In this document: positions 10,615 to 11,863 of the stretch, in pieces | How the letters are laid out: each line of letters begins with the position of its first letter | Numbering within the stretch: position 1 is the first letter of the stretch | Origin: a virus | DNA length: 64,000 nt | IMG/VR virus record: IMGVR_UViG_3300044684_000161 | Span: 1-64,000 of that record | Reading direction: 5' to 3' (one strand) | The notes under the pieces: generated by a model | The model's input: the letters and a program-made list of their open reading frames with translations, nothing else | Database searches by the model: none | What the model was told of the DNA's origin: nothing | Program-made: the position numbers and the translations under genes

Positions 10615-10733
10615 CCTTCACGACTGCCGACTGCTGCCCGGGAGTCGAACCCGGCGCCCAAGGGCTTCGCTATGGTCGCCCCGATGGTGCAATCGGCATG
10701 CGTGAAGGCCGCTTACGCCGGCCAGTCGGCGGC
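10615..10733 (-). ncRNA. Scaffold-cargo RNA module 1, with a canonical T-arm in the cargo
   Basis: CCTTCACG-CA-TGCCGATTGC...GCAGTCGGCA-GT-CGTGAAGG; CCGGG-TTCGACT-CCCGG at 10638-10654. Confidence 0.7.
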
Positions 10734-10911
10734 ACGCTAATTTTCTCCGCCCGTCATCGCAGTTATCGATTGCGCCTCGTCGGTCGTGGAGGACTCCTCC
10801 TCCCGTTCTCCGATGGTCGAGGGCATCAAATGCGGCTTGCTGGATTACTTACCGGAGCTACGCGGCGATCAACCGCGCGCCTACCACGCCAGCGCCCATC
10901 ATCTGATCGAC

Positions 10912-11033
10912 CCTCACGGCTGCGTTCGATCGACCCCTCGACTCACCGAGGATCCGGGGATGGACTCTCGCCTCGGTGGACCGCTGCATCGAACGCATGC
11001 GTGAGGCGACCGATTACGCCGGTCAGGCGGCGG
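10912..11033 (-). ncRNA. Scaffold-cargo RNA module 2
   Basis: CCTCACG-CA-TGCGTTCGAT...ATCGAACGCA-GC-CGTGAGG. Confidence 0.7.
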
Positions 11034-11154
11034 TTCGTTGTAACGTGAGCCGCGAACTCGTGACACATACGCGGTGCCGCGCGAGAGGATAGCGTCTGGC
11101 TCGAACGCGCTCGCGCGCGGATGGCCGTACTCCCATGCACTTCTGACCACCTTA

Positions 11155-11224
11155 CCCTCACTGCTGGCGGCTGAGATCCGAGCTCCCAACTCTTATAACG
11201 CCTAGCGCAAGCCAGTAGTGAAGG
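11155..11224 (-). ncRNA. Related hairpin module
   Basis: CCTTCACTACTGGC...GCCAGCAGTGAGGG, a 14-bp stem with one mismatch. Confidence 0.5.
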
Positions 11225-11356
11225 TGCGGGGTTTAGCTATCACCCTTCCCGATGGATCAGCCCCGCAAAGCCCCCTCGGTGTAGTCTGTCTTCTGGTCCC
11301 CGCCGCGCGACAGACATTCGCGGCGGATCAACCCCTCGCTCTCACAGTGGTATCCA

Positions 11357-11489
11357 TCACGACTGGCGGCTGGACCGTCGGTGCGTGCCACCGATATTCT
11401 CTCAGCGTCTTAAGACGGCCTTAGTCCTGTCAGCACGTCATCCAATCGCCATGCGTGAAGCGGCTCGTAACGTGAGCCAGTCGTGGCGG
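11357..11489 (-). ncRNA. Scaffold-cargo RNA module 3
   Basis: TCACG-CA-TGGCGATTGGA...TCCAGCCGCCA-GT-CGTGA. Confidence 0.7.
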
Positions 11490-11689
11490 AGGGACCGGGC
11501 ATCGTCGCACTTCCCGACCCCTCCAACGCGTTGCGCCGCGTGGCTATTTTCTAGGCGCTGCTTGAGGCTTACCACAGCCTCACTGATTCCTCGGCGCTTG
11601 AGGGTCATCCTGAGTCCCGACCGGATGACATGCACACGTGAACCAGGGCCTACGCCAATCAAGTTCGCGCGCGGGAAGCAAAATTCTGA

Positions 11690-11863
11690 TTCACGGCTGA
11701 CGGCTCCAAGAGCGGATCGTCTCTCGTCACCTTGTTTAAGCGCACGGGGGTTGTGGCATCCTTAGCAGGCTCCGCCTGTACCATCCTGCCGTGCGCTCCG
11801 CTGGTCTATTTTCGACCAAGCCGTCATGCGTGAAGCGACAGCTTACGGCTGTCAGTCGGCGGC
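11690..11863 (-). ncRNA. Scaffold-cargo RNA module 4
   Basis: TTCACG-CA-TGACGGCT...AGCCGTCA-GC-CGTGAA. Confidence 0.7.

Follow-up and report, generated by a model that had tools for sequence, protein, structure and literature searches.

We analyzed a non-coding region of the phage record IMGVR_UViG_3300044684_000161 that carries repeated small RNA units, each built of a constant handle around a variable insert, here named cargo. The window, i.e. the whole stretch of 64,000 nt that was analyzed, represents the first 64 kb of this complete 90,102-bp phage record, which has direct terminal repeats and whose source DNA runs are soil and rhizosphere metagenomes. Approximately 3 kb without a credible open reading frame (ORF) were located between a C5 DNA methyltransferase gene (7748–9169, minus strand) and the early-region genes (from 12086, minus strand). 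This interval contained six units (11865–10022), a tail module (10049–9931) and an intrinsic terminator (9893–9874), which together form a non-coding transcription unit of approximately 2 kb on the minus strand. The region is best explained as a dedicated operon of modular small RNAs, in each of which a constant handle is combined with an exchangeable folded insert.

A covariance model, here named R1, was built from aligned units and run on the window, on the other loci, on cultured phages and on genomes. In the window it identified six units, i.e. the four that had been noted before, with scores between 30.8 and 67.6 bits, and two diverged ones. The array is composed of the following features:

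11667–11865, minus: unit 1 (R1 30.8 bits, E 3.6e-6; fold z −3.49; inverted repeat I10), with 5' hairpin 11853–11837 (GACAG/CTGTC), handle 5' strand TCACGCATG 11833–11825, cargo 11824–11700 (125 nt) and handle 3' strand CAGCCGTGA 11699–11691
11321–11490, minus: unit 2 (R1 57.4 bits; inverted repeat I11), with 5' hairpin 11478–11462, handle 5' strand 11458–11450, cargo 11449–11366 (84 nt) and handle 3' strand CAGTCGTGA 11365–11357
10892–11036, minus: unit 3 (R1 59.9 bits; inverted repeat I6), with 5' hairpin 11024–11008, handle 5' strand 11004–10996, cargo 10995–10923 (73 nt) and handle 3' strand CAGCCGTGA 10922–10914
10580–10735, minus: unit 4 (R1 67.6 bits; fold z −3.97; repeats I5 and D11), with 5' hairpin 10723–10707, handle 5' strand 10705–10697, cargo 10696–10627 (70 nt) and handle 3' strand CAGTCGTGA 10626–10618
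10638–10654, minus: perfect T-arm-like hairpin within the cargo of unit 4
10298–10418, minus: unit 6, a diverged copy (R1 15.5 bits, E 0.043, marginal; repeats D3 and D9), with 5' hairpin CUGG-AACCCGUAA-CCAG, lower stem UCAUG 10386–10382 with CAUGA 10317–10313, 2x2 loop UA/GC and upper stem GGCGC/GCGCC
10043–10225, minus: unit 5, a diverged copy without the internal loop (R1 match 10225–10022, 36.6 bits, E 1e-7; inverted repeat I9), with 5' hairpin 10212–10196, closing helix UCAUGCAGGGG 10191–10181 with CCCCUGCAUGA 10058–10048 and cargo 10180–10059
9874–9893, minus: intrinsic terminator, an 8-bp stem followed by a U tract, which ends the RNA array

The original prediction had placed four copies of a covarying scaffold on the minus strand, and the coordinates of these copies were exact. 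The pattern CATGCGTGAN{7,9}TWACG matched the window four times (plus-strand starts 10697, 10996, 11450 and 11825) compared to no match in each of 100 shuffles. As a total, however, four was too low, since R1 added the two diverged units (10225–10022 and 10418–10298). The repeat search of the window returned a direct family D1 with four copies and the inverted pairs I5, I6, I10 and I11. As proposed, the 5-bp hairpins covaried, with all five positions paired in each of the four copies and each copy having a different sequence. The inner stems also paired (six to seven of seven positions in the four copies) and the cargo differed in length (125, 84, 73 and 70 nt).

In minimum free energy (MFE) folds the long closing helix was present in units 1, 3 and 4 (z −3.49, −2.52 and −3.97, respectively), and in unit 6 the 10-bp lower stem, the 2x2 loop and the upper stem were all formed (z −2.05). 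In the MFE fold of unit 2 (z −2.83) the leader pairs with the 3' strand instead of the closing helix, which counts against a single fixed fold. The leader CCGCCGACT is specific to one subfamily. A helix between leader and 3' strand (CGACUG with CAGUCG) was dropped as a conserved helix because no compensatory pattern was present in 11 subfamily members, even though it still wins in the MFE fold of unit 2.

An open frame of 169 codons (10152–10661, minus strand) overlaps units 4–6. It had no match in Pfam or PHROG and is most likely not a gene.

Structure and distribution of the handle

The handle reads 5'-UCACG-CA-UG-stem...stem-CA-GY-CGUGA-3'. It is composed of a lower stem UCACG/CGUGA, a 2x2 internal loop (C.Y plus A.G), the pairs UG/CA and a covarying upper stem, and in most relatives the closing helix reaches at least 3 bp outward past TCACG/CGTGA. 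For the analysis of covariation 90 units with a cargo of 45–84 nt, three from the window and 87 from other loci, were aligned and a helix of 16 pairs was scored. In total, 97.5% of the cells were paired compared to 79.3% in shuffles, and none of 500 shuffles reached the observed value. Sliding of the partner strand lowered the paired cells to 32–48%. Nine of the 16 pairs showed changes on both sides, whereas seven never varied because they were fixed by the search pattern. The three outer pairs, which lie outside the selection by the search pattern, covaried as well (e.g. AU 39, CG 23, UG 22, UA 5). Among the 1440 cells 119 were G.U and 9 were A.C, and therefore the RNA is read from the minus strand of the window. 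The structure of the handle is real.

In the unit of the cultured Burkholderia phage BcepIL02 (one R1 unit, at about 8672–8818 of FJ937737.2) an otherwise invariant G-C is replaced by A-U (UCACA/UGUGA). Hits that were found by R1 only, and which are thus unbiased by the pattern, carried the core UCACGCAUG / CAGYCGUGA almost unchanged.

The covariance model and the phage search that the original prediction had proposed yielded many further instances. When IMG/VR was scanned with the 5' module, 96 stretches matched. The 3' arm was also present in 14 of them, and the hairpin was paired at five of five positions in 12 of these 14. The other 82 were rejected as chance or unrelated matches because the 3' partner was absent. 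With both arms and a gap of 45–75 nt, at least 119 stretches were found. Among the matches listed there were 134 distinct ones over 217 loci, and the inner seven positions paired at six or more in 101 of the 134. The 33 matches with five or fewer inner pairs were set aside; 11 of them have five of seven, including true tRNA-like members. A Rickettsiales locus from a metagenome-assembled genome (L103) was dropped with two of seven inner pairs.

On 100 loci R1 gave 95 matches, mostly a single unit per locus. A stricter pattern matched three Burkholderia or Paraburkholderia contigs and one chance hit in the GTDB genomes. Sampling of the host family gave R1 units in at least 5 of 150 genomes, and in sampling across the phylum the centre genome was the one carrier detected among 151. 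Both counts represent floors, as few candidates were scored per genome. Beyond this phage, 98 or more phage contigs, the phage BcepIL02 and scattered genomes of the Burkholderiaceae carry the handle.

Rfam 15 scans with gathering and E-value thresholds covered the window, the stretch 9200–12600 and 16 loci. With cmscan and all 4227 families nothing was found on the units at E up to 10. Neither handle nor tail was matched, and the hits were limited to tRNAs, a Proteo-phage-1 RNA (L213), a weak permuted transfer-messenger RNA (tmRNA; L232) and a weak match to RF02423. No description of the handle family was found in the literature, subscription journals and supplements being outside the coverage. 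Judged from its sequences, this family of predicted RNAs, which is absent from the catalogues, is present in more than a hundred phages and often lies in a group of phage tRNA genes. The match to RF02423 concerns the 3' end of the array (9867–9942, minus strand; UGGUCUCCUC..., then the terminator), which weakly resembles the 3' end of the Burkholderia small RNA (sRNA) candidate Bp1_Cand871 (16.8 bits, E 0.25, far below the cut-off).

Cargo, tRNA context and the tail module

The 99 distinct cargos fell into 84 sequence clusters (blastn-short). The loci L024 and L094 occupy an orthologous position and have identical upstream and downstream flanks, yet their cargo is unrelated. Locus L054 and unit 4 of the window have a common upstream spacer and carry two further cargos. 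The idea of a constant covarying handle with interchangeable payloads was borne out by both the clusters and the pair L024/L094, and the latter also documents the turnover of cargo between related phages that the original prediction had suggested comparing. The cargo is not wholly featureless, as unit 4 carries a T-arm-like hairpin.

In many cargos the fold consists of two hairpins set on the closing helix. A perfect T-arm-like hairpin was found in 4 of the 99 well-stemmed cargos (shuffle mean 0.01), window unit 4 being among the four. This count left out members with a shorter inner stem, several of which are fuller tRNA mimics. The cargo of L128 reached 46 bits on the Rfam tRNA model. At a relaxed threshold ARAGORN called 4 of 17 sequences tried; its drawings of L128 and L225 resemble tRNA-Ile(GAU) and that of L213 resembles tRNA-Met(CAU). 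The units are nevertheless not simply tRNA genes: ARAGORN found none in the window, and only part of the relatives' cargos score as aberrant tRNAs. The only ARAGORN tRNA of the phage, a tRNA-Leu(CAA) at 65072–65158, is located beyond the window and has a T-arm core in common with the cargo hairpin of unit 4 (13-nt match). A tmRNA was considered and rejected, as ARAGORN -m found none in the phage and a scan for tag-like ORFs gave a single one (...LIAA and stop, near 10893) that was judged to be chance in GC-rich DNA.

All tRNA-like cargos were found in one register. The CA of the internal loop corresponds to tRNA positions 1–2 and GY to positions 71–72 (pairs 1:72 and 2:71), and the next C is the discriminator. 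By this register UCACG/CGUGA represents a 5' leader paired to a 3' trailer. Of 98 loci, 23 carried tRNA genes, without exception on the strand of the unit, and in 19 these were within 500 nt. In L125 and L196 the ...CCA of a tRNA-Tyr runs straight into UCACG, and in L175, L067 and L198 a tRNA begins 1–3 nt past CGUGA or overlaps it. These units must therefore be cut out when the tRNAs are matured in the normal way. From what is established on tRNA maturation, a unit with a tRNA directly on either side is freed in this process, and the two handle strands are then its ends. We think that the connection to tRNAs, which was not mentioned in the original prediction, is the key to the handle. The locus L213 additionally carries a Proteo-phage-1 RNA (1259–1343; RF03044, 49.2 bits, above the cut-off) in a tRNA island with two handle units.

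For the survey of protein neighbours, ORFs of at least 90 aa within 5 kb of the units were clustered for 99 loci and 16 representatives of the commonest clusters were annotated. The commonest neighbours were the terminase large subunit (28 of 99 loci, downstream and on the same strand), portal (14), DUF1376 (10), NinG (9) and DnaB (8). The annotated clusters comprised terminase, portal, NinG, DnaB, replication, exonuclease and HNH proteins, and no recurrent RNA-binding or RNA partner protein travelling with the units was found in this survey. TROVE/Ro60 (PF05731) had no match in the complete 90-kb phage and none in three of three unit-bearing host genomes, while control genomes matched. Reverse transcriptase (PF00078, RVT_1) was found neither in the phage nor among the recurrent neighbours, and RtcB had no match in the phage.

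The units of the window are followed by a tRNA-shaped tail module with its own closing helix P1:

9931–10049, minus: tail module, with P1 5' strand GAGGGUG 10049–10043 (overlapping the 3' strand of unit 5) and P1 3' strand CACCCUC 9937–9931
10024–10039, minus: tail hairpin A, after an AAU linker, GCGC-AGGCUGAU-GCGC (4 bp)
9938–9956, minus: tail hairpin B, after a variable spacer and without a linker before the P1 3' strand, GCCGG-AGAUCAGCA-CCGGC (5 bp)
other loci: tail instances in L233 (phage P1) at about 1195–1315, L231 at 1505–1640, L232 at 1495–1630 and L219 at about 2440–2600

The closing helix P1 has 7–9 bp, and the loops AGGCUGAU and AGAUCAGCA of hairpins A and B contain 6 nt that are complementary to each other. 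Over 26 distinct instances, the two P1 arms of 9 nt paired at 8.3 of 9 positions on average compared to 5.7 with mismatched partners, and many fully compensated variants were observed. The 5' arm of the tail is the same stretch as the 3' arm of the handle (CGUGA-NGG-UG). As this middle strand is shared, the handle 5' strand and the tail 3' strand are near-copies competing for it, and covariation is present in either pairing. The tail or its hairpin A was found in 113–148 named phage records (Klebsiella, Escherichia including Stx2, Salmonella, Erwinia and Pseudomonas phages; HK620; P1). The 14-nt motif of hairpin A did not occur in literature text of the coverage given above, in either the RNA or the DNA alphabet. 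In Pseudomonas phage PAJU2 and in Stx phage 1720a-02 the tail is located downstream of a cI-like gene.

In phage P1 the tail lies in the leader of the C1-controlled ban operon, after a dicF-like region, trnA and trnT, and opposite to the putative ORFs plp and upl. It is preceded by a hairpin with a CGUAA loop and a closing helix of 23 bp with one mismatch that encloses cargo (z −4.5; R1 only 16 bits). This element maps to approximately 69.7–69.9 kb, near trnA and trnT, and no c4 annotation is present there. Phage P1 shows an architecture like that of the window. The design is therefore not confined to the handle sequence of Burkholderiales. The ORF calls plp and upl in P1 may be spurious. The stretch of P1 after trnT (NC_005856.1, about 69.5–69.95 kb, plus strand) holds at least two long-helix units with T-arm-like cargo in addition to the tail, and these units too are located opposite to plp and upl within the ban leader. 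In L232 (Escherichia phage Bas80) a weak permuted-tmRNA match was found at 1222–1345 (27.9 bits, below the cut-off), with an SsrA-like tag frame ending in ...VVLMAA and a stop. It is located downstream of a consensus-like promoter and approximately 150 nt upstream of the tail, and ARAGORN calls no tmRNA there.

Proposed processing of the units and rival explanations

We propose that the handle is a closing and processing handle derived from the tRNA acceptor, by which enzymes of tRNA maturation excise and stabilize interchangeable RNA payloads, and we assign this reading a probability of roughly 40%. The units would be co-transcribed with tRNAs or tRNA-shaped modules, and the host machinery for tRNA maturation would cut at the 2x2 loop or next to it. 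That the tRNA register is constant leads us to infer that this loop is a general processing point. On the 5' side the cut would be made by RNase P, and on the 3' side a cut of the RNase Z/BN type or exonucleolytic trimming could follow. RNase III is a possible alternative, which would cut the two strands with an offset of two mismatched positions. Each payload would thus be freed as a discrete RNA that is protected by its paired, nuclease-resistant ends. The payloads, sealed tRNA mimics as well as other three-way-junction folds, would serve as effectors and probably bind host or rival factors.

In its widest form the proposal is doubtful. In phages of Burkholderiales, and also in P1-like and other enterobacterial phages whose handle sequence is different, one universal handle of tRNA origin would carry a library of RNA payloads that is maintained and shuffled by recombination. 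By means of this handle the tRNA-maturation line of the host would be hijacked to express, excise and stabilize any insert. The payloads, sealed tRNA mimics among them, would be decoys or inhibitors in conflicts between phage and host or between phages, as an RNA counterpart of protein 'moron' and anti-defence cassettes.

Several observations speak against processing by the tRNA enzymes. A 3' CCA is missing from the handle and position −1 is occupied by G, both of which are poor features for bacterial RNase P. Since only 4 of the 99 well-stemmed cargos carry a perfect T-arm, the rule by which RNase P measures the 12 bp of acceptor and T-arm has no reference in most units, and the acceptor-like stack of unit 4 is longer than 12 bp. 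Furthermore, the lower stems of window units 1–4 have only 5–8 bp and no tRNAs flank these units, and unit 5 has no internal loop at all. Finally, the near-invariance of the handle exceeds what a processing site recognized by structure only would need and rather favours a sequence-specific binder.

Small stable RNAs of unknown function are encoded and co-processed in the tRNA clusters of phages T4 (species 1 and 2 RNAs) and T5 (RNA1–3). Compared by description, not by sequence, they resemble the units in their tRNA-cluster setting, and we know of no shared handle with exchangeable cargo described for them. The hairpins cut by RNase III in polycistronic phage RNA (T7 early RNA, T4 tRNA cluster) have two stems of about 10 bp around an internal-loop cleavage site and a variable apical part. 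The units likewise have two stems separated by an internal loop with a variable apical part. They differ, however, in the symmetric 2x2 loop with fixed bases, in the lower stem, which in window units 1–4 has only 5–8 bp, and in the folded apical part of 45–125 nt.

A sequence-specific binder could be a host protein, in which case each unit would represent the RNA part of a ribonucleoprotein. Models for this are the bacterial and phage Y RNAs (YrlA/YrlB, Yrn1; bound by Ro60/Rsr), which are phage-encoded too and have a closing stem of their 5' and 3' ends and a distal module, in many cases a sealed tRNA mimic (PMC4201824). There the closing stem binds Ro60 and the often tRNA-like distal module recruits other factors. 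The units share this layout of a modular small RNA with closing stem and distal module; the handle core is near-invariant even in hits found by the model only, its non-Watson-Crick loop is conserved and part of the cargos is tRNA-like. The handle 5' strand is often GGCGAUUG, which is one base off the YrlA motif GNCGAAN0-1G (PMC4201824). In the handle strand UG-NN-GAUUG, however, the second A of the motif is a U, and the two bases that open the GNCGAA-like stretch behave as ordinary covarying stem pairs (GC 45, CG 33). Moreover, in the tRNA-like cargos the handle replaces the acceptor stem, whereas the acceptor-like stem of YrlA is a closed internal hairpin (PMC4201824). Most cargos are not tRNA-like, neither a Y RNA nor any other Rfam family was matched, no RNA-binding protein recurs among the neighbours, and Ro60 is absent from the complete phage and from the three of three unit-bearing host genomes. 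We thus regard a host-protein complex as unlikely.

The shared middle strand of handle and tail raises the question of a folding switch or antitermination device acting in cis. CGUGA-NGG-UG would pair either with the upstream copy, closing the handle, or with the downstream copy, closing the tail, and the choice would control read-through or ordered processing. Upstream and downstream helices each covary with the common middle strand, the array ends approximately 40 nt before the terminator that precedes the methyltransferase genes, and the tail is located just downstream of cI-like genes in PAJU2 and 1720a-02 and in the leader of the C1-controlled ban operon in P1. The put RNAs of phage HK022 are cis-acting structured RNAs that need no phage protein, and they likewise lie downstream of early promoters and are followed by terminators (PMC9378689). 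Compared by description, they are of about 70 nt with two stem-loops and no cargo, unlike the units (PMC9378689). A pure switch would also leave the hypervariable cargo without a role, most loci carry one unit in a tRNA array far from promoters, and the upstream and downstream strands could be direct repeats that arose by duplication rather than a selected switch. Such a device is therefore quite unlikely.

The cargos might instead be antisense or guide sequences on a common scaffold, directed against transcripts of the host, of rival phages or of defence systems. The phage regulatory RNAs C4 (P1/P7) and CI (P4) are cut from an operon leader by RNase P and have paired ends and functional loops. 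The great diversity of the cargo and its turnover between related phages are in line with this possibility, as are several units per phage with different cargo and the weak likeness of the array 3' end to a Burkholderia sRNA candidate (RF02423, E 0.25). The analogy to repeat/spacer or guide cassettes drawn in the original prediction was not confirmed, however. The longest complement of each of six cargos to the rest of the 90-kb phage was 11–14 nt, a length that 14 to 198 of 200 shuffles reached and that is not above chance. Most cargos are compactly folded and leave few long loops single-stranded and, unlike C4 and CI RNAs, the units have neither a match to c4 or another Rfam family nor an antisense target in the phage. 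Antisense cassettes are thus very unlikely. A CRISPR array, in which identical direct repeats alternate with unique spacers of similar length near cas genes, is not suggested by the arrangement either, as the repeats are two inverted arms per cargo and the units are spaced by 301, 454 and 375 nt. No cas-like neighbours were present among the annotated clusters, in which cas families were not searched for directly.

It is extremely unlikely that the elements act as DNA, i.e. as mobile miniature cassettes or as recombination sites formed by a folded single strand, in the manner of integron attC sites or miniature inverted-repeat transposable elements, with an incidental RNA structure. The replacement of cargo between conserved inverted arms is cassette-like, and the flanks are direct repeats (5' hairpin and CACC-N-UCAC before the unit and again after the tail). 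The excess of G.U over A.C (119 vs 9), on the other hand, indicates that one transcribed strand is under selection, and the units always point in the same direction as the tRNA and protein genes beside them. Integron attC sites have R and L boxes with a GTTRRRY core. Compared by eye to this consensus, the arms of the units (TCACGCATG and CAGYCGTGA) are unlike the R box, and no recombinase, transposase or integrase was found among the recurrent neighbours. A retron is likewise not indicated, as no reverse transcriptase is adjacent (PF00078 without a match in the phage and none among the recurrent neighbours).

If the proposed excision by tRNA-maturation enzymes is true, the units would represent a large class of non-coding phage RNAs that is missing from the catalogues and follows a simple modular grammar, in which the handle is constant and the payload exchangeable. 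They would account for unannotated "intergenic" stretches in phage tRNA islands, among them those of model phages such as P1 and the Stx phages, in which ORFs like plp and upl have been annotated on the other strand, and could offer a natural scaffold for the expression of stable RNAs in bacteria. The role of the extra stable RNAs in phage tRNA clusters would become testable with the cultured members BcepIL02 and P1 and with payloads that can be swapped between identical flanks.

Two groups of symmetric repeats were observed next to the array. A perfect 12-bp inverted repeat ACTCACCAGATC / GATCTGGTGAGT is located at 12110–12136 and a related copy at 9356–9377, 2.7 kb away, so that the pair brackets the RNA array. 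Just past the terminator (9792–9860) there are two 24-nt palindromic repeats TAATGTTCGA...TCGAACATTA. Both the inverted repeats and the palindromes look like operator sites.

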